Shown here one piece after another: positions 581 to 63,096 of a stretch of 64,000 bases of DNA (the stretch's first letter is position 1; the number at the start of each line of letters is the position of its first letter). The DNA is from Patescibacteria group bacterium (GTDB lineage: Bacteria > Patescibacteriota > Patescibacteriia > UBA1558 > GWA2-36-10): contig JAHJQF010000001.1 of the NCBI GenBank assembly GCA_018819405.1, positions 907,377-971,376 of the forward strand. Direction: 5' to 3'. Below the pieces are notes generated by a model. The model did not search any database. It was not told the origin of the DNA and saw only the letters and a program-made list of their open reading frames with translations. The translations under genes were made by a program, and so were the position numbers.

Positions 581-1265
581 ATTTAAAAACGTTAATAAAA
601 AATTCTATAGCATCTTTGGCGGACAACTTTGATTTTCCTTTTTCTCTATCCAAAAATACCGAAGGTATTTCTTTTATCCTAAAATTATTTTTTTCAGCAA
701 TATATATCATCTCAATCTGAAAAGCATAACCATTGCTTTTTATTTTTTTGTCTTTCAGAAAATCCAAAAACTTTCTATTGTAACACTTGAATCCAGCAGT
801 GACATCCTTTGTATTTAATGACAATATCAATCTAGAAATTGCCATAGCACCATTACTGGTCAAATGACGCCAAGCGTTCCAACCTACAATCTGGCCACCT
901 TTTATTTTTCTAGAAGCGAGCACTATATCAAAATTTTGACTTTGCTCTACCAACTTTATAATATCTTTTGGATTGTGAGAAAAATCAGCATCCATAGATA
1001 TCACAAAATCATATTTTTTTTCTCTAGCAAACTCAAATGCCTCTTGATAGGCTGAACCAAGACCTAGCTTACCAGGACGTTTTTTTAAAAATAAACTATC
1101 ACTATATTTATTTTGCAAATTTTCTACCAGGCCGGCTGTATTGTCTGGAGAATTATCATCAACTATCAAAATATCCAAAGACAAGGACAAATTTTTGATA
1201 GCTATTATCAAATCAGATATATTTTCTTTTTCATTATAGGTTGGTATAACTACCAAGTATTTCAT
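549..1265 (-). CDS. GT2-family glycosyltransferase (polyprenol/dolichol-phosphate mannosyltransferase-like)
   Basis: Has the VVIPTYNEKENI and DADFSH motifs typical of DPM1-like GT2 enzymes. Length 238 aa. Confidence 0.75.
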   Translation of the reverse strand: MKYLVVIPTYNEKENISDLIIAIKNLSLSLDILIVDDNSPDNTAGLVENLQNKYSDSLFLKKRPGKLGLGSAYQEAFEFAREKKYDFVISMDADFSHNPKDIIKLVEQSQNFDIVLASRKIKGGQIVGWNAWRHLTSNGAMAISRLILSLNTKDVTAGFKCYNRKFLDFLKDKKIKSNGYAFQIEMIYIAEKNNFRIKEIPSVFLDREKGKSKLSAKDAIEFFINVFKLRFTPLNKFK

Positions 1266-2458
1266 AACTGATTATTTACTATTTTAAACCAAAAGTCTTT
1301 TACCTGACCAAATGTCCGACCACGACTATAAGTATCGGCAAACTCCTGTTTGATTTTGATACCAATTAATTTTACCAAATCTTCATTATCCAAGAGGTAT
1401 ACTAATTTAGCAGTAGTATTTTCCAAATCATTTATATCCACCAGCCAGCCATTTTGACCATCTTCTATAATAGCTGAAGGACCTAGTGATCTGGATGCCA
1501 AAGTAGGTGTAGCAGACAAACCTGATTCAATAATCACTTTGCCAAAACTCTCACTAACTGACAAGAGAATAGATAAATAAGCGGCTTGGTAATAAACCAA
1601 TAATTCATTATGCTCTTTGGCTCCCAAAAAAAATACCAAATCCTGCAAATCATTTTGATTAACAAAATTTATTAATTTGTCATGCTCTGTGCCCTCGCCA
1701 ACCAAAAGCAAAACAAAATTATTTCTTTTTTCTTTCAGTTCTTTAATGAGCTCCAAAAGGAAAGTGAGATTTTTTTCTGGCACCAGACGACCGACAAAAA
1801 GTATTATTTTTTTATTGGAATATTTATTTTTTATATCGGATATCTGCTGGTTATCTAGGTCCAATACAAATTTTTCCGTATCAACCGGGGTATTAATCAC
1901 CTGTATTTTACTTTCATTAATACCTGAAAAAACCAGCTTTTCCTTTATTTTTTTGTTTACTACCCTGATAGCATCAGCATTTTTGACTGTTTTTTTCTGC
2001 AAAATATTGAAAATGCGATGTTTAAAAGATAAGGCTAACCAGCGTGGATTGTCCCAAAAATCACCGTGAAAATGAAGCTCAAATTTTATTTTGTATTTCT
2101 TTTTTAAAAACATGCCCAAAAGCCCAGTCAAATGAGGATCCTGAGTGTCAACCAAATCATATTTGTTTTTTTTCATCAAATCTTTGGCCAAAACCCAAGC
2201 TTGATACAAAGACAAAAATTTGTTGCCCACTCCATAGACCTGAAGATTGTCAGATAAAATACTGCCGGAATTATTGGTTTTACCCAAGACAATGATATCC
2301 AGACGTTTGAGGCTCTTGGCATACTCTCGATGACGGCTAATAGAGTCCCCACTACTAGAGCTATTTAAGAGCCCAGTATCAAAACTAATCATTAATATTG
2401 AAATGTCTTTCAAATCTATCACCCCATTAGAAATTATTTTTTGCTCTACTTTTTCCAT
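1262..2458 (-). CDS. glycosyltransferase family 4
   Basis: C-terminal GT4 motif (VGEGTEH... ESFGKVIIESGLSATPTLASR). 398 aa. Confidence 0.75.
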   Translation of the reverse strand: MEKVEQKIISNGVIDLKDISILMISFDTGLLNSSSSGDSISRHREYAKSLKRLDIIVLGKTNNSGSILSDNLQVYGVGNKFLSLYQAWVLAKDLMKKNKYDLVDTQDPHLTGLLGMFLKKKYKIKFELHFHGDFWDNPRWLALSFKHRIFNILQKKTVKNADAIRVVNKKIKEKLVFSGINESKIQVINTPVDTEKFVLDLDNQQISDIKNKYSNKKIILFVGRLVPEKNLTFLLELIKELKEKRNNFVLLLVGEGTEHDKLINFVNQNDLQDLVFFLGAKEHNELLVYYQAAYLSILLSVSESFGKVIIESGLSATPTLASRSLGPSAIIEDGQNGWLVDINDLENTTAKLVYLLDNEDLVKLIGIKIKQEFADTYSRGRTFGQVKDFWFKIVNNQL

Positions 2459-3769: not shown

Positions 3770-4057
3770 TTACAATTTATTATATAAATTAGCCCAATTT
3801 TTATTATATTTTTCTATTAAATCAATCTTTTTCTGTCTTGACCCCGCTTTAATTTGCTTTTCTCTAGATATAGCTTCATAAGCATCTTCATATATTTCAT
3901 AATATACTAATTTATTGATACTATATCGTGATGTAAATGATTTATTATCTAGTTTTTCTTTATGTTGCCATACTCTAACAATTAAATCATTTGTTACTCC
4001 TGTATATAATGTACCCTGTTTATGATTAGCCAAAATATAAACAAAATATTGTCTCAT
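3770..4057 (-). CDS. GIY-YIG nuclease family protein (small, about 95 aa)
   Basis: YFVYILANHKQGTLYTGVTNDLIVRVWQHK = GIY...YIG motif. Confidence 0.8.
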   Translation of the reverse strand: MRQYFVYILANHKQGTLYTGVTNDLIVRVWQHKEKLDNKSFTSRYSINKLVYYEIYEDAYEAISREKQIKAGSRQKKIDLIEKYNKNWANLYNKL

Positions 4058-4083
4058 CGCTTTTCTTCATATTTAATTGTAAA

Positions 4084-5232
4084 TTATTTTCCCAACATTC
4101 TTTGATAAACTCTATCCATCTGACTAGCTACTTTATCCCAAGAATATTTTTCTTTTACTAATTCCTGACCACGCTGGACAATTGATTTGTAAAGCTCTGG
4201 ATTTTTGACATATTTAGATACTGCCTCGGCAATGGAAGCCGGATTTCTGACTTCACAAAATAATCCAGTTTGACCGTCTTGTAAAAAATCAGGAATACCA
4301 CCGACTCTAGTAGCAATGATGGGCGTACCAACTGCCATAGCTTCTACAAAAGAATTACCAAAGCCTTCAGACAATGACGGACGACAAAAAATATCAGCTG
4401 ACTCTACATAAGGCGGTAATTTTTTGTAATCGGTATAGCCCATAAACAAAACATTGTCAGTGACTTTTTTTTCAACAGCCAAATTACGAAGTTTTTGCTC
4501 ATCAGGTCCAGAACCAAAAATAACAAGCTTAGTATTGATACCCATTTTGTAAACCAGAAAATGAACAGCTTTTATCAAATCATCTATTCCATTTTTTAAA
4601 ACCAATCTAGAGGTGGTGACAATCATAGTCTGATCAATCTGCACTCCTAGTTCCTCTCTAATCTTGGCAATACCGTCTTGATCAAGAGTGTTTTTGAAAA
4701 CATTCAAGTCAGCCGCATTTGGCACGAGTAATATTTCACCTTTATTACCCATCCGGCGTGATCTTTCGCCAAGCCACTTGGAAATTACCTGAGTTACTTT
4801 TGGTTCACGATAAATACGTTTGTAATAATAATCCCAAAACCAAGTTCTTTTTCTCAAAAATGCGTCACTGTCTCCGCTCTGCAAGGTAAGTAGATATGGG
4901 ACTTTTGTGTTATACTTAAAAAGTAAAGCTGCCAGACCGGCATAAAAAGCCATCATAGACCAGGCAAAATCAAATTTTATAATTCTATTCAAATTGATAG
5001 CATAAATAGTTGCCCTGAAAGGATAAATATATTTGTCCCATTTTTTACCATTACCAATACGACGGACATTAATATTGCCAATTTTTTCTTCTTTGGACCA
5101 AGTAGCATCAAACTGATTGGTAATCATATAATACTCATAATTTGGCAACCTATCAGTAATTTCTTTAATTGCTACTTCTGCTCCGCCAACATATGGATGG
5201 TAGGCCAGAGAAAAAATAAGAATTTTCTTCAT
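4084..5232 (-). CDS. glycosyltransferase family 4
   Basis: EGFGNSFVEAMAVGTPIIATRVGGIPD motif. Confidence 0.8.
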   Translation of the reverse strand: MKKILIFSLAYHPYVGGAEVAIKEITDRLPNYEYYMITNQFDATWSKEEKIGNINVRRIGNGKKWDKYIYPFRATIYAINLNRIIKFDFAWSMMAFYAGLAALLFKYNTKVPYLLTLQSGDSDAFLRKRTWFWDYYYKRIYREPKVTQVISKWLGERSRRMGNKGEILLVPNAADLNVFKNTLDQDGIAKIREELGVQIDQTMIVTTSRLVLKNGIDDLIKAVHFLVYKMGINTKLVIFGSGPDEQKLRNLAVEKKVTDNVLFMGYTDYKKLPPYVESADIFCRPSLSEGFGNSFVEAMAVGTPIIATRVGGIPDFLQDGQTGLFCEVRNPASIAEAVSKYVKNPELYKSIVQRGQELVKEKYSWDKVASQMDRVYQRMLGK

Positions 5233-40146: not shown

Positions 40147-41334
40147 TTACTTTAAAATTTTGGTTACTACAGCAGCACCAACAGTACGTCCGCCTTCGCG
40201 GATAGCAAACTTGGATTTTTCTTCCAAAGCTACTGGAGCTATCAATTTGATCTTCAAATTGATAGTATCTCCTGGCATAACCATCTCAGTACCTTCTGGT
40301 AATTCAACTTCACCGGTTACATCAGTAGTACGGATATAAAACTGTGGCTTGTATCCTTTGAAAAATGGAGTGTGACGTCCACCTTCTTCTTTACTCAAGA
40401 TATAAGCTTCAGCTTCAAATTCAGTGTGAGGAGTGATAGAACCTGGTTTGGCCAAAACTTGTCCACGTTGTATTTCATCTTTTTTGGTACCACGTAACAA
40501 AATTCCAGCATTGTCTCCTGCCCTACCTTCTTCCAACTGCTTATTAAACATCTCAATACCAGTAACAACAGTCTTGCTAGTGTCTTGTAGACCGACCATT
40601 TCAACTTCGTCATTTAGTTTGACAACTCCTCTTTCAATACGTCCGGTAACTACAGTACCACGACCTTCAATTGAAAAGATGTCTTCAATAGGCATTAAGA
40701 ATGCGTGTTCAGTATCACGTTTTGGTTCTGGGATATACTCATCCAAAGATTTGATCAAATCCAAAATTGGTTTTGAATCATCACCTGATGGATTTTCCAA
40801 GGCTTTCAAAGCGGTACCTCTGATAATTGGAGTTTCATCGCCTGGGAATTCATATTTCTTTAACAAATCTCTAATTTCTTCCTCAACTAGATCTACGAGT
40901 TCTGGATCATCAACTTGGTCCATTTTGTTCAAAAATACAACAATGTATGGGACACCAACCTGACGAGCAAGTAAAATATGTTCTCTAGTCTGAGGCATTG
41001 GACCATCAGCAGCTGATACTACCAAAATAGCACCATCCATCTGAGCGGCACCAGTAATCATGTTTTTGACATAGTCAGCGTGACCTGGACAGTCTACGTG
41101 AGCGTAATGTCTTTTTTCTGACTCATACTCAACATGAGCAGTGGCAATAGTAATACCACGTTCTCTTTCTTCAGGAGCATTATCAATCTGATCAACGTCC
41201 TTTTGCTGAGCAACACCACCATGAGCGGCTAATACCTTCAAAATGGCGGCAGTCAGGGTAGTTTTACCGTGGTCTACGTGACCAATAGTACCCACATTTA
41301 TGTGTGGCTTTTCTCTTTTAAAAGCTTCTGCCAT
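40147..41334 (-). CDS. tuf: elongation factor Tu (start at [18 protein letters not shown]-track start is an upstream TTG)
   Basis: [11 protein letters not shown]-loop. Full EF-Tu. Confidence 0.9.
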
Positions 41335-41435
41335 TTTTATTCTTTCTCCTATGATAGCCCCCCGCAAAAATGTGGGGTTTGTGAGCCAGCTATCTTGATT
41401 AAAATTACTTAATTATCGTTATTTAAAACACACAG

Positions 41436-41521: not shown

Positions 41522-41887
41522 CTAGTCAACTGGCTCTATATAATACCTATCATCATCACCCACTGCTGACTTATCAACAGTAGTTTTGTCATCAGTATTT
41601 TCTGGCTTTTTTTCATCCTTTCTTAGAGTGTCCACACGGAAATTTTCCAGGCTATAGTCATCTAAGTGCTCTTGAGAAGCTTTCCAGACGGCAATGTCAC
41701 GATTTATCTTGTCCAAAAGCTCGTCTTCAGACAATCCTTTGACTGATGACGGACCAGCCAACAAAGCCTCATATTCTTTGACGGTCATGATTACATAGGG
41801 TTCATGGTTGTCTGACAAAACAATAACTTTGTCACCGGTTTTGGCCGCTAGTTCCAAAACTTTGTCTATTTGTTTGTAATTTGGCAT
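41522..41887 (-). CDS. hypothetical protein, N-terminal Phd/YefM-antitoxin-like fold, acidic C-terminus
   Basis: KVIVLSDNHEPYVIMTVKEYEALL resembles the YefM/Phd N-domain. Weak. Confidence 0.3.
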   Translation of the reverse strand: MPNYKQIDKVLELAAKTGDKVIVLSDNHEPYVIMTVKEYEALLAGPSSVKGLSEDELLDKINRDIAVWKASQEHLDDYSLENFRVDTLRKDEKKPENTDDKTTVDKSAVGDDDRYYIEPVD

Positions 41888-41894
41888 ATATTTT

Positions 41895-41972
41895 CAGTTT
41901 AAAGTTTGAAAGTTATAAAATTTAAAGTCATTTTTTCTACTTTTTAACTTTGAACTTTTTAACTTTTTACTG
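41895..41972. repeat. AT-rich AAAGTTT/AACTTT repeat element. Family with 29808-29845 and 32108-32186
   Basis: Direct read. Confidence 0.6.
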
Positions 41973-42025
41973 ATTAAAGTGCTAGTATTTTATAGTAAAA
42001 TTAAGGCTTTTGTCAAATTTTAATC

Positions 42026-42067
42026 TAACCTTCGAGGTTAGATTTAACCTCGAAGGTTGCTTTTTTC
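42026..42067 (+). terminator. hairpin AACCTTCGAGGTT-n6-AACCTCGAAGGTT plus T-run. Insulates the promoter at 42070
   Basis: Near-identical to the secY terminator at 28472-28516. Confidence 0.65.
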
Positions 42068-42069
42068 TA

Positions 42070-42098
42070 TTGACAAAATAATAAATATGTGATATAAT
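42070..42098 (+). promoter_or_regulatory. consensus sigma70 promoter TTGACA-17-TATAAT
   Basis: Perfect hexamers and spacing. Confidence 0.7.
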
Positions 42099-42324
42099 AT
42101 TACATTACTATAAAAAGTTCTTTAAAAGTGGGATTTCCCAGGTACAAACTTGGAGGTTGGAGAGCAGATAAACTAGCTAGATTTTATTGGGTCTCTACTC
42201 AACAATTTCAGCCTAATTATCTGGTCTAAGCTGGCTTCGGCCAAAAGCTAGACATCTCTCCTCCAAATTTGTGCCTGGAAAAATACTCCTGGTACAGCTC
42301 AACCCATCCAAGGAAGGAAACGCC

Positions 42325-42471
42325 ATGTTGGTACTGGCTTACTGCCTCTGCAAGCAGGCTCCCCGAGCCGCGGCCAAGGTCTCCTACCTGATGCTCTGCA
42401 CCATGGTCGGCCCGACCCTGATTCTCCTGTCCGCCATGATCGCAGGGATGATCTACTCCCTGCACCTCTAA
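42325..42471 (+). CDS. 48-aa hydrophobic Cys-rich peptide (MLVLAYCLCKQAPRAAAKVSYLMLCTMVGPTLILLSAMIAGMIYSLHL) with strong SD AAGGAAGGAAA
   Basis: SD 6 nt upstream. One predicted TM helix. GC-rich codons. Confidence 0.4.
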   Translation: MLVLAYCLCKQAPRAAAKVSYLMLCTMVGPTLILLSAMIAGMIYSLHL

Positions 42472-42586
42472 AGATCTGAACACAACACCAACACCCGCCA
42501 GGATCCCACCTTTCAAAGACCTATCTCGAATAGGCCCCCTCCTAAGTCTATAAAAAATTATAGATTTGGGAGGGATATAATAAGGC

Positions 42587-42625
42587 CCGGTAATTATTTA
42601 CCGGTCTTTATTTTATTTTTAAAAA
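42587..42625 (+). terminator. intrinsic terminator CCGGTAA ttat TTACCGG plus long T-run
   Basis: Direct read. Confidence 0.75.
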
Positions 42626-42678
42626 AATATATAATAAAATTAGTTCTTTCCACCACCCACACCTGAGGAGGTGAAACC

Positions 42679-42879
42679 ATGCTGGGCATAAAACAAAAAC
42701 AATGTTTAATCGAAGGCCTGACAAGGCAAATCCGAGAAATTCGTATCAAAAAAATAACTAATCCAGTACAGATAGAAAAAATTATCCTGTACGCTATGCA
42801 AATGCGCCGAGAAAATATAATAAATGATTTCCAAGAAATCGGCACAACCAACGCTGAATTATTATCCTGGCTACCCTAA
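42679..42879 (+). CDS. 66-aa hypothetical protein with strong SD (GAGGAGGTGA)
   Basis: SD. Followed by the terminator at 42922-42962. Confidence 0.5.
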   Translation: MLGIKQKQCLIEGLTRQIREIRIKKITNPVQIEKIILYAMQMRRENIINDFQEIGTTNAELLSWLP

Positions 42880-42921
42880 GGAGAAAGGCCTAAACATGTT
42901 ACCAACAACCTAAAACCACCT

Positions 42922-42962
42922 ACTTCACGGAAGATTGGGTGGTTTTATATTTGAAGATATCT
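42922..42962 (+). terminator. intrinsic terminator AAAACCACC...GGTGGTTTT plus T-run
   Basis: Direct read. Confidence 0.7.
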
Positions 42963-42984
42963 TAAATAAAATAACTTTTATTAG

Positions 42985-43013
42985 TTGACAAAAACTATAC
43001 AATATACTATGAT
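42985..43013 (+). promoter_or_regulatory. sigma70 promoter TTGACA-17-TATGAT. Downstream near-palindrome TGTCAATTGATA in the leader
   Basis: Direct read. Confidence 0.6.
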
Positions 43014-43069
43014 AACTCTCTGTAATGTTCCCTGTCAATTGATAACCTCAGACTCAAAGGAGTGAGTTC

Positions 43070-43480
43070 ATGCCACTTGAATTTCAGCTTTTGTCACTGA
43101 TTGAGCTACGCCAATACGTGGCTCAGCTCAACGAAAATTCTCATCCCGGGTTTGTGTTTCGTATCTTGGTACAGTGTCTGTGCCAGATAAAGGCCGGTGC
43201 TTGCTGGCCACAAATTGGCACGACCCAAGTCGACATGCAGACGCTGATGCGCGTCTGTCACAAAAACCAGGTGAGACGTGAACTTCAGGCCATCCTGGCC
43301 AAAAATGAGTACACACCGCTGAATTTTGATGACGCGGAAAAACTGAGCTGCATCATGGAGGAGATCCAGCAATGTCACATCAATTGGAATGATCTTCCTG
43401 TATCTGAGAATGTATTGAGACAAATCATCAATATGGCCGCTTGCGGCTATGAACACTGCAATCAGCAAAAAATGGCCTGA
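43070..43480 (+). CDS. 136-aa Cys-rich hypothetical protein (about 50% GC), SD AAGGAG
   Basis: Good RBS. Own promoter and terminator. No recognisable domain. Confidence 0.55.
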   Translation: MPLEFQLLSLIELRQYVAQLNENSHPGFVFRILVQCLCQIKAGACWPQIGTTQVDMQTLMRVCHKNQVRRELQAILAKNEYTPLNFDDAEKLSCIMEEIQQCHINWNDLPVSENVLRQIINMAACGYEHCNQQKMA

Positions 43481-43530: not shown

Positions 43531-43689
43531 TTTAATTTTTGAGTAAAGACTTTTTGTAATACTTTTCAAAATTACTTTCAGCAAAAAAATCCCAGCCTCT
43601 TAGCCATATTTTTATTTTTCTTTTTAGCATAAACATATATTTTAATTAGCTATAATATACAACGAAAAAATAAAATAAAAGTAACAAAA

Positions 43690-43713
43690 AAGGAGCGGAC
43701 TGATGCCCGCTCC
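43690..43713 (-). terminator. terminator hairpin GGAGCGG..CCGCTCC plus T-run (minus strand) after cdd
   Basis: Direct read. Confidence 0.6.
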
Positions 43714-43724
43714 CGACCGAATCC

Positions 43725-44237
43725 TCACCTGAGGGTGAAAACATGAGGCAAAAGCACCCCGATACTTGCCCGAAAAACAAAGCCCTCGGTGTTGACCGAC
43801 AGAATCGGCACTCTATTGTCGCCGTTGCAGTGCTCGCTGATAATCTGACGACAATCGCCACATGATGTGACCATACTACTGACATTAATCTTGCCCAGAT
43901 CAATGTCTTTGGGTGTCAGATTGAACTCACGATCAGCAGTCGCACCAGCCAAAACCAACATCCTAATATTGAGTTGTCCGCTGACTACCATGGCCGCTAG
44001 AGCTGAACGCTCGGCATGAGTGACTTTGTAGTGGGCGTACTCCACATTGCATCCGTAAAAAACGACGTTACTCTGACTGACCAGAGCACAGCCCACCTTG
44101 AAACCGGAATACGGAGCATAGGCATTACGCCTAGCATTGATAGCCTGCTGAACCAGGCCACGCCCGTCTGCTGACGACATGTCAGAAAAATGGAAAATTT
44201 CCACATCCCCGACCCGATGAATCTTGCTTGCCTGCAT
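43725..44237 (-). CDS. cdd: cytidine deaminase (start at MQASKIHRV with SD GAGGAGG)
   Basis: NAYAPYSGFKVGCAL, GCNVEYAHY, HAERSAL, SCGDCRQII zinc-ligand motifs. About 50% GC. Confidence 0.8.
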   Translation of the reverse strand: MQASKIHRVGDVEIFHFSDMSSADGRGLVQQAINARRNAYAPYSGFKVGCALVSQSNVVFYGCNVEYAHYKVTHAERSALAAMVVSGQLNIRMLVLAGATADREFNLTPKDIDLGKINVSSMVTSCGDCRQIISEHCNGDNRVPILSVNTEGFVFRASIGVLLPHVFTLR

Positions 44238-44320
44238 GACTAGCCTCCTCGTTTGTGCCATATACCTCTGGACAGAACTAAACTGGCTATAAATTAGCAA
44301 TAAAATATTTTTCTGTCAAA

Positions 44321-44349
44321 CCGCGTTAGAAAAATTTTTTCTAACGCGG
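44321..44349. repeat. palindrome CCGCGTTAGAAAAA/TTTTTTCTAACGCGG (CCCGTTAGAAAT-family variant)
   Basis: Direct read. Confidence 0.7.
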
Positions 44350-44350
44350 T

Positions 44351-44419: not shown

Positions 44420-46513
44420 CTAATTTTTCTTAATTATCTCTTCAGCAACATTGTGAGGCACCTGAGCATATTTTTTGAACTCCATAGAATAACTAGCTCG
44501 TCCCTGAGTCATAGATCTTAGAGCGGTAGCATAACCAAACATCTCAGATAGTGGCACTTCGGCATCAATAACCTTGGCACCAGCTCTATCGCTCATTTCA
44601 TGAACCTGTCCTCTCTTGGAATTCAAATCACCAATCACATCGCCCATGTATTGTTCGGGAGTGACTACTTCTACCGCCATGACTGGCTCTAAAATAACCG
44701 GGGTAGCTTTTTTGAAAGCTTCTTTAAAAGCCATTGAACCAGCTACTTTAAAAGCAGCTTCAGAAGAGTCAACATCATGGTAACTTCCATCATAAACAGC
44801 TACTTTAACATCTTGTATTTGATAACCAGCCAATATTCCGTTGTCCATGGTTTCTTTGATACCTTTTTCAATAGCCGGAATATATTCTTTTGGAATAACG
44901 CCACCTTTGATTTCTTCTTCAAACTCAAATCCAGTACCTCTTTCAAGTGGTTCCAATCTCAACCAACAATGACCATACTGACCACGACCACCAGATTGTT
45001 TGATATATTTTCCTTCTGCCTCGGCAGTAGCCGTAATGGTTTCTTTGTAAGCGACTTGTGGGGCACCGACATTGGCCTCAACCGAAAACTCACGCTTCAT
45101 ACGATCCACAATAATATCCAAATGAAGCTCTCCCATACCACCAATAATAGTTTGATTTGTTTCTTCATCTGATCGGACAGTAAAGGTTGGGTCTTCTTCG
45201 GCTAATTTTGCCAGAGCCATACCCATCTTTTCTTGATCAGCTTTGGTTTTTGGTTCAACTGCCACATGAATAACTGGTTCTGGGAAATCCATACTTTCAA
45301 GGACTACTTCTCTTTTTTCATCACAAAGAGTCTGACCAGTAGTTGTATCTTTTAGGCCAACAACAGCTACGATATCACCAGTAAATATTTCAGATACTTC
45401 TTCACGAGAGTTGGCGTGCATTCTAAGAATTCTTCCAATCCTCTCTCTTTTCTCGGTATTGGCATTAAAAACATAAGAGCCGGATTTTAATGTACCAGAA
45501 TAAACTCTTACAAAAGTCAGTTTACCAACATAAGGATCAGTCGCCACTTTAAAAGCCAAACCTACAAAAGGATCCTCATCTTTAGCCAAGACCGTGATAT
45601 GATTTTCTTCATTTCTTGGTTCGTGTCCGACAATTTCTGGTACATCAAGTGGAGATGGTAAATACGCAACAATGGCATCTAGCAAAAACTGAACTCCTTT
45701 GTTTTTTAAAGCTGAACCGACAAAAACTGGCACAATCTTGTTGCCAATAACGGCCTGTCTCAAAACTTTTTTCAAATCTTCAATAGCTGGTTCTTCTCCG
45801 CCAAGATATTTTTCCATCAAGGCTTCATCGTTTTCTACAATCGCTTCAATAAGTTTTCCACGGAATTCTTCTACCTTATCTTTCATGTCAGCTGGTACTT
45901 CACGTTTTTCAAATTGTTTACCGTCTTCATCAAGATAATACCAAGCTTCTCTTTCTAAAAGATTGATAATGCCTTCAAAAGTTTCAGCTGCTCCAATTGG
46001 CAACTGCATTGGATGGGCAGATTTTGTCAATCTATCATGAATAGTTTTTAAATCATAATAAAAATCCGCACCCATTCTATCCATCTTGTTTACAAAGGCT
46101 AGGCGGGGCACATGATATTTGTCAGCCTGTCTCCAGACAGTCTCCGACTGTGGTTCTACTCCAGCTACTCCATCAAAAACAATCACACCACCATCAAGCA
46201 CGCGCAATGATCTTTCTACTTCTACAGTAAAATCTACGTGACCTGGGGTATCAATAATATTGATATTGGCTTTGTCACCACCCAACCAGTCAGGTAAATT
46301 CCAAAAACAAGTAGTCGCGGCAGAAGTAATGGTAATACCTCTTTCCTTTTCCTGTTCCATCCAATCCATTTCAGCTTGCCCTTCATGGACTTCACCGATT
46401 TTATGTTTTTTTCCTGTATAAAAAAGAATACGCTCCGTCACGGTAGTCTTACCAGCATCAATATGAGCAATAATTCCAATGTTTCTTATTTTTTCAAGTG
46501 GATGTCGAGGCAT
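44420..46513 (-). CDS. fusA: elongation factor G
   Basis: AHIDAGKTT, full-length EF-G. Confidence 0.95.
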
Positions 46514-47576: not shown

Positions 47577-47638
47577 AAAGTCCCCAATAAAATAGCATAA
47601 AAAAATATATAAGTCAAGAATAATAGCCAAAATTAATA

Positions 47639-47681
47639 CCCCTCCCCCTTAGATTTTGTGAATCTTTGGAGGAGGGGCGGG
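47639..47681 (-). terminator. hairpin CCCCTCCCCC...GGAGGAGGGG after the GC-rich lipoprotein gene
   Basis: Direct read, one mismatch. Confidence 0.5.
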
Positions 47682-47706
47682 TTTCAGGCCCTAATGAGAG
47701 ACCTGA

Positions 47707-48360
47707 CTAGTCGATCAGGACGTAGTCGGTGATGTCGCCGTTGTAGACATCGCGGACCTTGATATTGTCCTCATCCCAGGCTCCGACAAAGGTCGGAGGC
47801 GTGCCGAACTGAGTGTTGTTGCGCACTTCAAACCAGGCGTACTCGCCGCGAGTAGTCCAGGTCGGGTAATCCCCTCCGATCTTGACGTGATCACCGAATG
47901 GCACACCATTCGATTCTCCCGTGTAGCCCCAAGGATAGCCCGGCTCAGTGCTGTAGACAGCCCCTAAACCACTGTCGACGAGAGTCCAGCCATTGACATC
48001 GCTGGTGGTCACGGTGAAAGGTAGCTGGTAGCCCCGAGCTTCGCCAGAAGGATAGACCTTCTGGTAAAACATCACTGCCCAGTAGCCAGTGGCGTAACCG
48101 TAGGGCGAACGGGAGCGAGTCAGAATGATTGTGTCAGGATCGGCAGTTTTCAGAACGGACTGAATACCCTGCCAGGTCGAACTGTCCTCCGCACTCCGAG
48201 AGGCCACGTTCATGACATCCTCGAAGCCGCCGCTCTGGTTGGTCGCGTTGACCTGATCGACGATCGAGGTCTCCGGAGCCGTGGTCTGGTCCATGTTGCT
48301 GCAGCCGGTCAGCCAGGCGAGGCAAACCAGCATTAAAGTGATTGCGATGATTCGCTTCAT
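47707..48360 (-). CDS. GC-rich (about 58%) lipoprotein (lipobox LTGCS), unknown function
   Basis: Signal peptide MKRIIAITLMLVCLAWLTGCSN. Protein-like composition. GC content strongly atypical for the genome. Confidence 0.6.
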   Translation of the reverse strand: MKRIIAITLMLVCLAWLTGCSNMDQTTAPETSIVDQVNATNQSGGFEDVMNVASRSAEDSSTWQGIQSVLKTADPDTIILTRSRSPYGYATGYWAVMFYQKVYPSGEARGYQLPFTVTTSDVNGWTLVDSGLGAVYSTEPGYPWGYTGESNGVPFGDHVKIGGDYPTWTTRGEYAWFEVRNNTQFGTPPTFVGAWDEDNIKVRDVYNGDITDYVLID

Positions 48361-48640
48361 GGTTAGACTTCTCCTTGTCTCAGATACAATAGTTTTGCCT
48401 CATTGAGGCGCTTCGAAAAACTGCAGGTGTGAATACACTGCTGTTCATGCTCTTACGGGTAGCGCAACCCCCCTTAACGCTTTTTAACTCCTTTACAAGG
48501 CAAATCAATTTCCATGTTCAAGGCAAGTTGTCGAGCAAAAGTTGCGTGAAATCTATAAATTAATCCTGTGACCAGGAAAAAATGCAACGAACTTTTACAA
48601 ACAATTATAAAAAATACACTAAAAATAAATTCTTGTCAAT

Positions 48641-48673
48641 AAAAAGAGCCCCCGCAGCATAAGCCGTGGGGGC
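48641..48673 (-). terminator. GC hairpin terminator (GCCCCCGCAGC...GCCGTGGGGGC plus U-run)
   Basis: Direct read. Confidence 0.6.
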
Positions 48674-48716
48674 CTGTCGATCACTCTACGACCACGTGAG
48701 GCCAATGCGGCCTGGG

Positions 48717-48827
48717 TCAGGCGATCGTCACCTCGCTCGCCGTCGTCTTCTTGACGGTCTTCTTCTTGGTAGCCTTCTTGGCGACCATCTTCATCTGCAT
48801 CTGGACACTGGGTCTTCGTCGATTCAT
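48717..48827 (-). CDS. 36-aa lysine-rich peptide MNRRRPSVQMQMKMVAKKATKKKTVKKTTASEVTIA with SD AAGGAGGA
   Basis: Strong SD 8 nt upstream. Flanked by terminators on both sides. The upstream 43 codons of the track ORF are AT-rich non-coding-like. Confidence 0.45.
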   Translation of the reverse strand: MNRRRPSVQMQMKMVAKKATKKKTVKKTTASEVTIA

Positions 48828-48929
48828 ATTGGGAATCCTCCTTATGGTATCACAATGACAGACAAATGTGCTGACTATGATAGCCAGCACGCGAGTATAT
48901 TTATAATAACATAAGCAAAAAAAACAAAC

Positions 48930-49006
48930 AATAAAAAAGAGCCCCCGCGGAAGCACCTCACTGGGCGCGATACTGAGATCGCGTGCAGAGGGTGCCCCGC
49001 GGGGGC
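48930..49006 (-). terminator. compound GC hairpin terminator (GCCCCCGCGG...CCGCGGGGGC) plus U-run
   Basis: Direct read. Confidence 0.6.
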
Positions 49007-49082
49007 CAGCAGCCTGATTGGCCAGCTTGGCGATGGGCGTATAGCCCGTGAAGACGCTGGCGACAGGCCGAAGCGCGTCACC

Positions 49083-49175
49083 TTACTGGGTCTCCAGCCC
49101 AGGGGTGACAGGCGTGGTCATCGGAGGCGCGTCGGACGCCTCGGCAGGAACATCGGGCAGGGTCCAGAAGAGCAT
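49083..49175 (-). CDS. 30-aa peptide MLFWTLPDVPAEASDAPPMTTPVTPGLETQ (SD GGAAAGGAG). Start overlaps the upstream stop (ATGATG)
   Basis: Paralogous N-terminus to 49175..49330. Confidence 0.3.
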   Translation of the reverse strand: MLFWTLPDVPAEASDAPPMTTPVTPGLETQ

Positions 49176-49330
49176 CATCGCTCCTTTCCGGCAACTGCCG
49201 AAGGTTGTCTGTAGCGCTCGGTCCATACGCCGGCCTCAACGGCGCGGTACCACCTGTGGCACGAACTGTTTCCGACGAGCTTAGTCGCCGGGTTCGCACC
49301 CGAATCGTCGGGAAGGAGCCAGTAGAGCAC
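49175..49330 (-). CDS. 51-aa peptide (GTG start) VLYWLLPDDSGANPATKLVG... (SD GAAAGGAG)
   Basis: DNA around the start about 80% identical to the next ORF start. The SD region is also palindromic, so it may be RNA structure instead. Confidence 0.25.
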   Translation of the reverse strand: MLYWLLPDDSGANPATKLVGNSSCHRWYRAVEAGVWTERYRQPSAVAGKER

Positions 49331-49415
49331 TGCTTCTCCTTTCGACTGGTTGTGTAGCTCCGAAGTGGAGCTACATGGTGCGGCTAGCTAGCCGCCGGGG
49401 CGCTGGCGCCCAGGT

Positions 49416-49523
49416 CTAGCTGCCGCGCCGCCGGCCGCGGACGTCGGTCGTGGAGGTGTTGCCCATGAGCACGAAATAGTTCGTGTAAGTGGCGACCGGA
49501 CGGCCGCGGATGTGGATCGACAT
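49416..49523 (-). CDS. 35-aa peptide MSIHIRGRPVATYTNYFVLMGNTSTTDVRGRRRGS (SD GGGAGGA). Member of the M-x-I-R-x-R-G-R-P short-ORF family
   Basis: SD 6 nt upstream. DNA about 80% identical over the first 10 codons to 54092..54136. Confidence 0.4.
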   Translation of the reverse strand: MSIHIRGRPVATYTNYFVLMGNTSTTDVRGRRRGS

Positions 49524-49678
49524 TGGGATCCTCCCGTCGTTGCATCATGGCAGGTTTTGTCCAGACTAGCTGGACGCTACATCCCACTTGGGGATACCAT
49601 TTTCCGTTGCTTAGACTTGTTGCGTATTCACTAGGAAATGATCGGGCGACTAAAAATATTTTTTAATCACGATTTTGT

Positions 49679-49706
49679 ATTATAGCACAAATAAAAAATT
49701 TGTCAA
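49679..49706 (-). promoter_or_regulatory. sigma70 promoter TTGACA-16-TATAAT whose -35 is embedded in the palindrome TTTGTCA-n8-TGACAAA (49699-49720)
   Basis: Direct read on the minus strand. Confidence 0.65.
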
Positions 49707-49739
49707 GAGCCCCTGACAAACCTTTTAAAAATACCAAAA

Positions 49740-50712: not shown

Positions 50713-50765
50713 AATAAAAATAAAGCGGGCGCCTGATGACATACATGATGCAAAAGTGGCGCCCG
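50712..50765 (-). terminator. terminator of the GC-rich gene (GCGGGCGCC...GGCGCCCG plus U-run)
   Basis: Direct read. Confidence 0.6.
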
Positions 50766-50785
50766 GAAAAGGGTCTTGGGCCAAA

Positions 50786-51085
50786 CTACCTGCTACTAGC
50801 GCAGGCCATGACGATCTTCTTGATCAGTCTCCTGACAGGGTGAGCCCTGATCAGCTCATCGCCGATGATCTGGTAGTGTCTTCCCTCACCATGAGGATCG
50901 AGATAGACCAGACGGGTCCGCGTATCCCAGATGGGCCAAGGTTGGCCTGCTCTGCGCAGACGACCGGTCGAGACATAGTCTCTTCCATCATAGCTCTGCT
51001 CTTCCACCAGTTCAACCGATGAAAAATTGTTGGGAAAAGGCACCCAACGGCGTCCGTCAATCGTCGCCCCAGCTTGTTTCGACAC
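50786..51085 (-). CDS. GC-rich (about 55%) hypothetical protein, about 100 aa, GTG start with SD GGAGG
   Basis: SD plus GTG. Own terminator. No recognisable domain. Confidence 0.4.
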   Translation of the reverse strand: MSKQAGATIDGRRWVPFPNNFSSVELVEEQSYDGRDYVSTGRLRRAGQPWPIWDTRTRLVYLDPHGEGRHYQIIGDELIRAHPVRRLIKKIVMACASSR

Positions 51086-51486
51086 AAGTAACCTCCAGTG
51101 TTTGTTTGGGCCAATATATGTGGCTGATAAAGCCACGGGATGAACAAAATATATTTTACAATACCACTCTTTGCAATTTTGGTCAATTATAAAAACCCCT
51201 GGCCTAAACTCGGGGTAAAAACAAAAAGGCGTTGTTATAGTTTGAAAAACTAATAAAACACCTTTTTGCTAGCCATTTTGTTGCATGAATTTGTGCCTTA
51301 GTAATTAATGACTATTGTAGCTTTGCTTTTTTATATGTATAACCCCTTTGTAAAAGGGTGGTGCTCGCAGACTAAAGGCCCCAGCCCAAGACAATATAAA
51401 GCACCAAGGCAATAATGTTGTAGAGTTACATATGTTAAAAAGAAGCTACATTTATAATATAACATCTTTTAAAAATCATTGCAAAA

Positions 51487-52496: not shown

Positions 52497-52560
52497 AACG
52501 CTTAAAAATTTAATGTTTATGCCTATATTATATGCTAAGTGAATATAAAAATCAAGGTAA

Positions 52561-52592
52561 TAAAAAGAGGGGGCAACGCACGCGCTGCCCCC
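52561..52592 (-). terminator. terminator GGGGGCAACGCACGCGCTGCCCCC plus U-run for the GC-rich lipoprotein gene
   Basis: Direct read. Confidence 0.65.
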
Positions 52593-52672
52593 TGGCGAGC
52601 GTCCCATCTTTGGGTTCAATTGGGGCAGTGTCTGCCCCTTTTATAGCTCGCTGAGACCCGCCGGTTTTGGTG

Positions 52673-53167
52673 TTAGGCCGCCATCAGGCGGCCAGGCCTA
52701 TTGCCGGGCGGGACGTCTTCCCTGCCGCCGTAATGGCCGAGGATGGAGCTCTTGTTCATCGTCACCTGGTAGTAGTCCCAGATGGCATCACCGGCCGAAG
52801 CCGACACACACAGTGCGCTCAGTGAGCTGGGAATCTTGATATATACCGGATCCAGATTGCTGACGACGCTGGAGCTCTTGTAGTAGAGCCCAACGGCATC
52901 ACCGGCCGAAGCCGCCACACACAGTGCGCTCATGTTACAGGACTCGTTGATCTTCTTCAGGACGACGGTCGTAGTGTTCGCCGTCGTGTCCATGTGATTG
53001 GCGATCGCCACGGCGATGTCCGTGCCGTCGGTGACCGCATACCACAGGTCGTTCTTCGCGTAACTGACCTGGCTGGCCATCGCGCCGCAAGCAAGCAGCA
53101 TGATGACGGCCACCAGAGCCAGAGCGGCGCCCATCATCAGACGCGAGGGTCCACGAATGTGATGCAT
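52673..53167 (-). CDS. GC-rich (about 62%) lipoprotein with internal duplicated motif SALCV(A/S)ASAGDA(V/I)..YY
   Basis: Signal peptide and lipobox ALALVAVIMLLACGAMA. SD GGGAGGAAG. Confidence 0.55.
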   Translation of the reverse strand: MHHIRGPSRLMMGAALALVAVIMLLACGAMASQVSYAKNDLWYAVTDGTDIAVAIANHMDTTANTTTVVLKKINESCNMSALCVAASAGDAVGLYYKSSSVVSNLDPVYIKIPSSLSALCVSASAGDAIWDYYQVTMNKSSILGHYGGREDVPPGNRPGRLMAA

Positions 53168-53409
53168 GTCTTCCTCCCTGAATGGGGACTAAAATGACTA
53201 CCTAAGGTAGCCGGCGAATGATACTCGGTTAAAAAACCTCCTTGGCTTTTGGTCTCACTATAATGAGTATACTTCCATAGGAAATATACTCGTGAAATTG
53301 TACAATACATATTTGAACATACAATATTTTGTAAATTCTGTCAATAACTATAAAAAATTCTACCCTGACCCAAGCTACTAAGTTTTATAGCTAATCTTCA
53401 TCACTTTTG

Positions 53410-53467
53410 GATAAAATCTATAAAAGAAAACCGGGCGAAACTCACTATGTGAAGCTTGTCTCGCCCG
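53410..53467 (-). terminator. cassette unit-1 terminator (CCGGGCGA..TCGCCCGG plus U-run)
   Basis: Direct read. Confidence 0.6.
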
Positions 53468-53661
53468 GTCAGGTGGTTGGCCCGAAGGCCACCGGATCGC
53501 TGTGCGATCATTTTTTGAGCCATTGGGCTCGAAGAAAAGAATATTGGGATTTTTGGAGATGGGCCTTGAGTCGCTTAAGTGCCCGGTCAGTTGGCCCGAT
53601 TACTCTGGCCGAGCTAAAGGTGGAATCGAAGCTTCATCGGCGACCTCGCTGGTCAGGCGGT

Positions 53662-53739
53662 TCATGCGGCCTTCGTGGCTGTACGGCGACGCAGCTCGGC
53701 GACGGTCTCCCTCGGGGGTCCAGTGTTTCGAATCTTCAT
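53662..53739 (-). CDS. 25-aa peptide MKIRNTGPPRETVAELRRRTATKAA (SD GGAAGGAG). Short-ORF family member
   Basis: SD 7 nt upstream. RBS region homologous to 49524-49545 and 54137-54160. Confidence 0.35.
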   Translation of the reverse strand: MKIRNTGPPRETVAELRRRTATKAA

Positions 53740-53876
53740 GATCAGACTCCTTCCTCGAGTCGCTTCAGAAAATTCCCGCCAAAATTAGCGGCATAGGAGA
53801 TGTGGCTCCTTCCAATATCGGCTGGGCTCCTGCCCTCCCCTATAGACCAACAGATCTAGCGAGAACGGCTGTTTTT

Positions 53877-53915: not shown

Positions 53916-53969
53916 TAAACAAAAAAATACCGGACAAAACTCGCTCTTGGAGCTAAGTCTTGCCCGGCT
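53916..53969 (-). terminator. cassette unit-2 terminator (CCGGACAA..CTTGCCCGG plus U-run)
   Basis: Homologous to 53430-53467. Confidence 0.55.
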
Positions 53970-54091
53970 TGCATCGCTGTAGATAGTCTCACCTGACCCC
54001 AGGTAATATTCCCCTACGAGGGGATCGTGAGAGTTGACTGGTTCGTAAGCGAAGGTCATCCTCTCCAACTAACGCTGGGAACTTTAGGAAG

Positions 54092-54136
54092 TCAGGCGTT
54101 GTCCCCGATGGGACGTCCACGGATGCGGATAGCCAC
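54092..54136 (-). CDS. 14-aa peptide (GTG) MAIRIRGRPIGDNA (SD GAAAGGAG). Truncated paralog of 49416..49523
   Basis: 17/20-nt identity with the start of 49416..49523. Confidence 0.3.
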   Translation of the reverse strand: MAIRIRGRPIGDNA

Positions 54137-54204
54137 GATATGGCTCCTTTCGTCGAGTCACTTCATACGTCGTTCCCACCATTACTGGCAGGAGTGGCTC
54201 TCTT

Positions 54205-54233
54205 AAGATATCAATCGCTATTAAATTAGTCAA
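54205..54233 (-). promoter_or_regulatory. promoter TTGACT-17-TATCTT (ATTGACTAATTT box, second copy)
   Basis: Direct read. Confidence 0.4.
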
Positions 54234-62810: not shown

Positions 62811-63096
62811 GCCATCTACCTCCTTGAAAAGAACAAACTTTGAAACTATCAAAAAAACTCTCACTAAGGAGAGTGGTGACAAAATTATTAAGCTTTAATA
62901 AATTCATCCTTTTGCTCCTTAGGCAAAGAATAAAACTCAGGTGTCGGACTTGTTCTCCCTACATTGGAGACTTACCGTAGCTAGGACTGCGGAGGATTTG
63001 CACCTCACTTCCCTGATTGAATTGTCAAAGTGAATTTATCTTAACACAGAGTAAAACGATTGACAACTGTCTGTGACCTTATACATTGTTGATAAG

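Follow-up and report, generated by a model that had tools for sequence, protein, structure and literature searches.

Dual-function coding RNAs, which act as structured RNAs and also carry a reading frame, are known as RNAIII/hld of Staphylococcus aureus, SR1/SR1P of Bacillus and SgrS/SgrT of Escherichia coli. The type I toxin mRNAs include the hok/sok, aapA/isoA and tisB/istR families. Phage morons are autonomous promoter-gene-terminator units of deviant base composition, and tRNA-like modules are found in bacterial RNAs such as tmRNA and YrlA/Y RNA. Here we describe an RNA unit that has something in common with each of these, encoded between the translation-factor genes fusA and tuf in a 64,000-nucleotide (nt) stretch of DNA from a Patescibacteria group bacterium (assembly GCA_018819405.1, contig JAHJQF010000001.1, positions 907,377 to 971,376). 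This whole stretch is called the window below, and coordinates without a locus name refer to it. A sequence-only reading of the window had singled out the unit as a GC-rich structured RNA, either type I toxin-like or novel, with a small hydrophobic open reading frame (ORF) inside. Our comparison with relatives suggests that the conserved entity is an RNA scaffold and that the ORF is a replaceable passenger. The RNA frame, and not a toxin mRNA, appears to be what is conserved, because several relatives carry the frame without an ORF. We give an even chance to the reading that this is a dual-function RNA, that is, a structured RNA with a role of its own that here doubles as mRNA for a small membrane peptide.

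The source organism belongs to the Parcubacteria within the Patescibacteria, or candidate phyla radiation (CPR). Its genome has 36% GC and KKH39_ locus tags, and the contig is ~1.03 Mb long. The genomes of CPR bacteria are tiny and poor in non-coding DNA, and, as far as we know, few regulatory RNAs have been described from them.

Results

A strongly promoted unit with a stable fold

The perfect TTGACA-17-TATAAT promoter that had been read by eye is present (Table 1) and is the top-scoring site in the 3.1 kb scanned. The pattern TTGACA-17-TGnTAnnnT was found at the same place in 15/15 aligned copies of the element, the window included. The transcription start site inferred from it is at ~42105. 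The intrinsic terminator noticed downstream was also recovered; relatives have a terminator at the same place with a different stem sequence. From these signals the unit reads as a strongly promoted RNA of about 510 nt.

The 521-nt stretch folded with a predicted energy of -185 kcal/mol, compared with -132 ± 6 kcal/mol for shuffled sequences (z = -8.8; 0/100 shuffles as stable). The minimum free energy fold includes a long helix, a UUCG-loop hairpin and a hairpin just before the terminator. Together with the covariation in homologues described below, this supports the earlier proposal that promoter and terminator enclose a genuinely structured RNA. The GC content had been put at about 55%. We measured 47% from promoter end to terminator, and only positions 42285-42497 were GC-rich (58%; 60% in the ORF). 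The conserved 5' region (5' tail plus 5' module, 42105-42284) has 39% GC, and the 3' module with the terminator 37%.

The hairpin described ahead of the promoter does exist. It consists of 15 pairs plus a T run and sits between the divergent phd and RNA promoters, where it could serve as an insulator, a terminator or an operator. The inverted repeat was not kept in the sequences of relatives and is therefore probably outside the core of the unit.

Relatives of the element

Since the peptide encoded by the ORF has no relatives, the search for homologous loci was anchored on the neighbouring Phd-like gene. This gene has hundreds of homologues in Parcubacteria, and their loci were fetched (designated by L numbers). 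The gene order fusA, variable region, phd, tuf was found in all of them. Aligning the window with relatives by blastn showed that the promoter and positions 42059-42281 are conserved (79% identity in L003, 73% in L004), as are positions from 42498 or 42534 to 42597 (84-88%). The segment 42282-42497, which is the GC-rich, ORF-bearing part, gave no alignment with L003 or L004. Further copies were collected from species-representative genomes and metagenome contigs with the pattern GATTNTATNGGGN{4,9}CTCAANNATTTCA, which describes the most conserved hairpin.

In total, homologues of the 5' part were found in 15 other distinct Parcubacteria loci: 14 relatives that could be aligned and L043, a more distant copy scoring 69 bits with a covariance model (CM). 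Wherever flanks were available, the element lay between fusA and phd-tuf on the opposite strand. The window itself contains a single copy as judged by blastn-short, nhmmer and CM searches, and viral contigs contained no copy of either module.

Conserved 5' and 3' modules

The window and its 14 aligned relatives form an alignment of 15 distinct sequences (A1). Its consensus fold is a three-way junction made of P1, P2 with the P2a hairpin, and P3 (Table 1). Standard pairs fill 94.2% of the cells of the paired columns, and compensatory double changes occur in 31/53 pairs. The covariation score was 0.398, and none of 500 shuffles attained any observed pair value. When the 3' partners were slid by 1-3 columns, the score fell to ≤0.069 and at most 9 pairs still covaried. 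Identity of the core to the window was 0.74-0.85, whereas the four-fold degenerate sites of phd and fusA, the flanking genes, reached only 0.39-0.53. These comparisons show the scaffold to be conserved, covarying and under purifying selection. Because of the covariation, the core identity and the kept promoter, we regard the scaffold as a real, selected, strongly promoted structured RNA. The long-range UUGGAGG helix and the UUCG-tetraloop hairpin had both been pointed out before, and together with the pre-terminator hairpin they are the helices that covary in homologues.

The 3' module was compared in 12 non-redundant copies from 11 loci. It starts with an unpaired C/A-rich stretch, and relatives have similar stretches (..CCCGCC..CCCACACACAAGG) ahead of hairpin A. 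In 12/12 folded modules a hairpin stood at the position of hairpin A, with a sequence that varied. The outer 14 positions of the adjoining hairpin B were 94% paired across the 12 sequences, with the compensatory variants CCACC/GGUGG (L012), CUCUC/GAGAG (L029) and CCCGCC/GGCGGG (L043). Hairpin B is the pre-terminator hairpin of the sequence-only reading, which was right about its place and gave it 14 instead of 17 pairs. We also considered cross-pairing of P1 (UUGGAGG/CCUCCAA) with hairpin B (CCUCC/GGAGG); this was rejected, as hairpin B is altered in L012 and L029 and P1 is not.

A hairpin very similar to hairpin B (CCCCUCCUCCAAAGAUU...AAUCUAAGGGGGAGGGG) occurs elsewhere in the window, at 47640-47676, directly 3' of a GC-rich lipoprotein gene (47707-48360, minus strand). 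An ACCCGCC motif precedes it.

Table 1. Positions of the RNA unit, its parts and its flanking genes; positions refer to the window unless a locus is named
Feature	Position	Strand	Remarks
tuf (EF-Tu)	40147-41367	minus	flank of RNA unit
Phd/YefM-like gene (phd)	41522-41887	minus	flank of RNA unit, beside tuf
Inverted repeat AACCUUCGAGGUUA / UAACCUCGAAGGUU, then GCUUUUUU	42026-42066	plus	perfect 14-bp arms; hairpin 42026-42059 followed by CTTTTTT
Sigma-70 promoter TTGACA-17-(TGa)TATAAT	42070-42098	plus	12/12 matches; TG extension (extended -10)
5' box AAAAGUUCUUUAAAA	42113-42127	plus	conserved in A1; single-stranded 5' tail; one exact occurrence in window
GUGGGAU	42128-42134	plus	5' half of end pairing; in variable-length part of A1; absent from relatives
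5' module, three-way junction	42136-42280	plus	~145 nt; alignment A1; CM R1 187.6 bits
P1, long helix UUGGAGG.../...CCUCCAA	42136-42162/42256-42280	plus	24 bp; invariant UGGAG/CUCCA core
P2	42165-42171/42217-42223	plus	consensus fold of A1
P2a hairpin	42180-42209	plus	sequence-invariant in 15 genomes
P3, UUCG-loop hairpin with AAA bulge	42224-42253	plus	consensus fold of A1
Cargo segment	42285-42497	plus	58% GC; other sequences in its place in all relatives
Shine-Dalgarno AAGGAAGGA	42310-42318	plus	6 nt upstream of ATG
48-codon ORF MLVLAYCLCKQAPRAAAKVSYLMLCTMVGPTLILLSAMIAGMIYSLHL	42325-42471	plus	one predicted transmembrane helix; orphan
C/A-rich unpaired stretch (CCAGGAUCCCACCUUUCAAAG)	42498-42517	plus	start of 3' module; blastn conservation from 42498; contains AUCCCAC (42503-42509)
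Hairpin A (GACCUAUCUCGAAUAGGCC)	42518-42536	plus	abuts hairpin B
Hairpin B (CCCUCCUAAGUCUAUAA-AAAA-UUAUAGAUUUGGGAGGG)	42537-42574	plus	17 bp
Intrinsic terminator CCGGUAA-UUAU-UUACCGG and U-rich tail	42587-42620	plus	stem 42587-42604, U run to 42620
fusA	44420-46513	minus	flank of RNA unit
P1-only mini-leaders	L004 7143-7239; L004 6230-6345; L021 1662-1792	minus	model R1

What lies between the modules

The cargo segment of the window left no DNA or protein trace in any fetched relative locus. The slot that it occupies holds different things in different genomes. Small, unrelated membrane ORFs were found in the window (48 amino acids, aa), in L003 (55 aa) and in the distant L043 (79 and 71 aa), where the scaffold is again combined with membrane ORFs. 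L004 and L033 belong to this group too: their ORFs have 47 and 50 aa and are followed by a second mini-leader that consists of P1 only and by a 44-aa ORF. L010 has a 29-aa peptide ORF (family D) with a hydrophobic N-terminal half. In L015, L021 and L022 the linker is only ~90-115 nt long and holds no plausible ORF; L021 and L022 keep promoter and terminator and would thus produce ORF-less RNAs of ~340 nt. No plausible ORF lay between the modules in 7/13 of the loci that have both. The cargo is thus unrelated between genomes and absent in some. Small-ORF families that recur among relatives have fewer nonsynonymous than synonymous changes per site (dN<dS; for example 0.115/0.562 between L029 and L038), and therefore small proteins are genuinely encoded at the locus.

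In L012, L018, L029 and L038 a tRNA-like element follows directly after the 5' module. Its acceptor stem is 7 bp long, its T arm carries a UUCRANU loop, and the whole folds like a cloverleaf. The element lies at ~4045-4115 (minus strand) in L012 and at ~1235-1325 (plus strand) in L029, where it ends in an encoded ACCA. Neither ARAGORN nor the Rfam tRNA and tmRNA models recognised the element in any of the four loci. We rejected a standard or permuted tmRNA and a true tRNA as its identity, as both acceptor strands lie within ~90 nt and neither CM nor ARAGORN made a call.

The 5' module was also found without the 3' module in three loci. In L023 it precedes a 42-aa membrane ORF, and larger genes come directly after it in L037 and L039. 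Mini-leaders with P1 and neither P2 nor P3 stand ahead of further accessory genes (31-42 bits with model R1; Table 1) and were also noted for L022. As a separate observation, L004 and L033 are identical over more than 1 kb except for 18 differences within 35 nt, between the -10 box and P1 (L004 7795-7830, minus strand). This cluster could be a local recombination patch or a strain mosaic.

These arrangements bear on the main rival to a dual-function RNA, according to which the unit is an ordinary small-protein mRNA and the 5' junction and the 3' twin hairpins are purely cis-acting elements of untranslated regions (UTRs) shared by the genes in the slot. Such elements could stabilise the 5' end, direct RNase III-type processing, block exonucleases at the 3' end or control translation. 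In favour of this rival, the 5' module stands directly ahead of larger protein genes (L037, L039) and ahead of membrane ORFs (window, L003, L004, L023, L043). The P1-only mini-leaders ahead of other genes of the locus (L004, L021, L022) and the hairpin at 47640-47676 behind another accessory gene also favour it. Against it, more than half of the two-module loci have no plausible ORF, and two of these still have promoter and terminator. The sequence invariance of P2a in 15 genomes would point to a specific partner rather than to generic stability, and a 5' stabiliser would not normally have its hairpin begin as far as ~30 nt from the inferred 5' end. We consider the UTR explanation somewhat unlikely.

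Several observations weigh against our preferred dual-function reading. The ORF-less scaffolds of relatives could be decaying remnants and not functional RNAs. The 48-aa ORF is a singleton without a homologue, and GC-rich DNA readily yields ORFs: an antisense 96-aa ORF overlaps the 48-aa ORF and is called by one pipeline. Finally, the A1 sequences are mutually related, so that the covariation counts are not independent events. We argue that the covariation signal of the 5' module is real despite this kinship, because the slid controls lose it.

The 48-codon ORF

A hydrophobic 48-aa ORF with a single transmembrane segment and a strong Shine-Dalgarno (SD) sequence is present as first described. 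Its hydropathy reaches a Kyte-Doolittle maximum of 2.09 over residues 22-40. To call the peptide Cys-rich was an overstatement: it has 3 Cys in 48 residues. The NCBI annotation has instead a 66-aa hypothetical protein starting from GTG 42271 (KKH39_04920). Exact-protein look-ups found neither the 48-aa nor the 66-aa version on record, and one pipeline has the antisense 96-aa ORF in their place.

The GC contents at codon positions 1, 2 and 3 were 0.53, 0.41 and 0.86 in the 48-aa frame and 0.69, 0.42 and 0.54 in the antisense ORF. The latter lacks three-base periodicity and was rejected as coding. The GC content at third positions (GC3) is 0.27 in fusA and tuf, compared with 0.86 in the 48-aa ORF. 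Since the positional GC values look coding, the GC richness of the middle appears to be a coding signature with non-host codon usage and not the result of selection for RNA helices. The expectation that the GC patch itself would be a structured functional RNA is not supported: the GC-rich part is the only part that is not conserved. The mean probability of being unpaired was 0.46 for the SD and 0.36 for the whole transcript, and the SD is predicted to be accessible, not sequestered. On this evidence the 48-codon ORF is likely to be translated.

No homologue of the peptide was found. A word-indexed search of 5.8 billion protein clusters returned only the peptide itself, and an exhaustive phmmer search of 1.84 billion representatives the peptide and compositional artefacts. 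A tblastn search of all fetched loci found no homologue, and there was no family match in Pfam, NCBIfam or PADLOC. One candidate, P0122 (E = 4.6e-15), was rejected as a compositional artefact, since BLASTP gave no alignment.

It might be asked whether the RNA is purely non-coding and the ORF untranslated, the GC-rich insert being either a fragment of a gene that was captured or filler tolerated by the linker. Some relatives do have an ORF-free scaffold, the peptide has no homologue, and long chance ORFs arise in GC-rich DNA, as the antisense ORF illustrates. Against this stand the periodicity of the sense frame (GC3 0.86 versus GC2 0.41), which the antisense frame lacks, the canonical accessible SD 6 nt from the ATG, the hydrophobic transmembrane segment, and the analogous SD-bearing ORFs with dN<dS in the slot of relatives. 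We find a purely non-coding RNA improbable.

Comparison with a type I toxin-antitoxin module

The sequence-only reading likened the unit to hok-family mRNAs because GUGGGAU near the 5' end is complementary to AUCCCAC near the 3' end. The complementarity is there: the predicted duplex has -17 kcal/mol (z = -3.6). Pairing of the 5' and 3' ends was absent from nine relatives (z -0.6 to +0.6), so the feature is specific to this genome. By eye no antisense promoter had been found, and our scan agrees. The only minus-strand sites, at 42622..42593 and 42244..42216, match 9/12 positions, which is at chance frequency (14 such sites found versus 7.6 ± 3.2 expected), and inspection of L003 and L004 showed that their hexamers are not kept. 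The SD was not sequestered in the full-length transcript.

A type I-like module would have the peptide as a membrane toxin, its mRNA kept inert by 5'-3' fold-back and controlled by an antisense RNA. The small hydrophobic ORF in a highly structured mRNA and the end pairing in this genome fit such a module, and the neighbouring gene carries the annotation of a Phd/YefM-type antitoxin, though the match is below threshold in Pfam. The fold-back missing from nine relatives, the free SD, the unconserved chance-level antisense sites and the unconserved peptide, whose slot is empty or filled with tRNA-like RNA in relatives, all tell against it, as does the absence of any toxin family match in Pfam, NCBIfam and PADLOC. 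The architecture that suggested a toxin is not a feature of the family, and we regard a type I module as very improbable.

Known RNA families

Rfam 15, with which the whole window was searched at the gathering level, gave no match at that level in the region. At E ≤ 10 over 41900-43100, only a sub-threshold match to tsr24 overlapped the structured core (minus strand, 42057-42207; score 11.7 bits, gathering score 50); further weak matches were in the flanks. Rfam found nothing matching the element in four relatives, and ARAGORN found no tRNA or tmRNA matching it in the window and 13 loci. The sequence-only reading had allowed that the RNA might turn out to be a known one such as RNase P or tmRNA; the Rfam scan found no such identity. 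Three-way junctions of the hammerhead, pRNA, 5S and signal recognition particle (SRP) types were considered and dropped for lack of an Rfam score. A phage origin was also rejected: no viral contig had either module, and the three neighbouring genes tested had no PHROG match. Full-text literature searches turned up no description of the RNA scaffold. The scaffold appears to be a new, unusually modular RNA family with good comparative support, apparently undescribed and confined, as far as sampled, to one Parcubacteria clade.

A conserved junction of ~145 nt with invariant nucleotides, directly after a promoter, is also what an aptamer would look like, and the first downstream ORF is often a membrane protein. 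The 5' module might then be a riboswitch-like or protein-sensing leader that controls downstream genes through a ligand or protein. However, P1 is a stable 24-bp helix, no conserved alternative pairing or expression platform was seen, the segment from P1 to the SD is unconserved, and the downstream content is heterogeneous (membrane ORFs, tRNA-like RNA or nothing). There is also no Rfam riboswitch match to the module. Such a leader is extremely improbable.

Elsewhere in the window, Rfam detected a cobalamin riboswitch aptamer at 62919-63050 on the minus strand (35.5 bits, gathering score 31.5).

Genomic surroundings

The RNA unit lies inside an interval of ~2.5 kb with fusA on one side and the Phd/YefM-like gene and tuf on the other. 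It is embedded in the str/S10 gene cluster, on the strand opposite to the cluster genes, and is further flanked by a cytidine deaminase gene. The annotation of the adjacent gene as a Phd/YefM-type antitoxin rests on a Pfam score of 23.5 bits, under the gathering threshold of 29.8.

Two genes downstream of the unit, 42679-42879 (66 aa) and 43070-43480 (136 aa), belong to lineage-specific families found at the same locus in relatives (L015, L023, L003). One family has ~70 aa with an ELGTTEEEL motif and the other ~125-176 aa. In six relatives the gene after hairpin B belongs to a recurrent family of 30-aa peptides (MK.FI..LRM..CDFSW..). The tested members of these three families had no match in Pfam, PHROGs, NCBIfam or PADLOC. 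Ahead of the 136-aa gene, at 42985-43038, two near-consensus promoters (11/12 each) on opposite strands overlap, and transcription from the one on the minus strand would run back toward the 66-aa gene with its terminator. The segment between fusA and the cytidine deaminase gene holds a perfect inverted repeat of 15 bp (ACCGCGTTAGAAAAA / TTTTTCTAACGCGGT) at 44320-44350.

GC-rich islands (50-69% GC) were seen at 43101-43375, 43676-44275, 47626-48425, 48601-49650, 50726-51100, 52551-53250, 53426-53875 and 53926-54225. Their ORFs have GC3 values of 0.52-0.78, compared with 0.27 in fusA and tuf. More generally, accessory genes in this and related genomes have a GC3 of 0.5-0.95, compared with 0.18-0.27 in the core genome. 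In an orthologous lipoprotein pair with 65% amino-acid identity, GC3 is 0.71 for the window gene and 0.86 for that of L003. The GC3-rich accessory genes appear to form a persistent compositional class that is fast-evolving and mostly orphan. As high GC3 is common to the accessory genes of related genomes, it would be a persistent property of the class and not proof of one recent transfer.

On the minus strand at 48601-49710 there is ~1 kb of up to 69% GC without a long ORF. It has a 12/12 extended -10 promoter (49706..49679) and tiny ORFs with strong SDs, of about 35, 51, 31 and 36 aa, with long GC hairpin terminators after them. Two of these ORFs have similar N-termini (LYWLLPDD and LFWTLPDV).

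Discussion

The central result is a structured RNA that is conserved independently of the ORF that it carries, which is the property expected of a dual-function RNA. In the model that we prefer, the selected parts would be those of the scaffold, namely the 5' three-way junction and the 3' C/A-rich stretch with its two stacked hairpins and the terminator. The linker between the modules would tolerate replacement, and in the window it would be filled by a self-contained cassette made of an SD and a 48-codon ORF for a single-pass membrane peptide, written in foreign-looking, GC3-rich codons. Beyond serving the ORF, we infer that the scaffold may act as a riboregulator, as a protein-binding RNA or as a stabilising frame.

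A bolder proposal is that the scaffold represents a new class of abundant cellular RNA in this Parcubacteria clade and that foreign small genes and tRNA-like modules repeatedly land in the linker and are expressed from it. The scaffold, with its invariant P2a and its C-rich stretch, would then be a trans-acting riboregulator or the RNA of a ribonucleoprotein. We think this rather unlikely. If the scaffold did act in trans, it would provide a new class of non-coding RNA for a large uncultivated radiation.

The scaffold combines a strong promoter, clear covariation and the lack of an Rfam family with a fixed place in a cluster of translation-factor and ribosomal-protein genes. With its exchanged middle, where membrane ORFs, a tRNA-like element or nothing at all may lie, the scaffold is a well-defined setting in which to study the gain and expression of small genes in genomes that have undergone reduction. 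The locus also exposes a class of accessory genes with GC3 far above that of the core genome.

How does the unit compare with the systems described so far? With type I toxin mRNAs it shares a small hydrophobic ORF in a folded mRNA and, in this genome only, end pairing. Unlike them, it has no antisense RNA gene, no SD sequestration, no conserved end pairing and no conserved peptide. Like a moron, the unit has its own consensus promoter and terminator and a coding part of deviant composition, inserted here between fusA and tuf. It differs from morons in lying outside any prophage (the neighbouring genes tested gave no PHROG matches), in the absence of the RNA from viral contigs, and in the RNA structures on either side of its coding part, which a bacterial clade has conserved at one fixed site of the chromosome. 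In four relatives an acceptor stem and a T arm stand beside the long-stem 5' module, which recalls tmRNA and YrlA. However, the window copy has no tRNA-like element, that of the relatives lies outside the long stem and not inside it, and Rfam did not recognise the relatives' elements as YrlA.

In possible mode of action, coding small RNAs of the RNAIII/hld type may be the closest analogues. The unit differs from the dual-function RNAs in having no sequence or structural homology to them (no Rfam match) and in its ORF, whose place in relatives is taken by other ORFs or a tRNA-like element or left empty. Like them, it is ~0.5 kb long, structured and independently transcribed, with a short ORF for a hydrophobic peptide and conserved 5' and 3' domains. 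The unpaired C-rich stretch near the 3' hairpins and the terminator also resembles the C-rich seed motifs of RNAIII.

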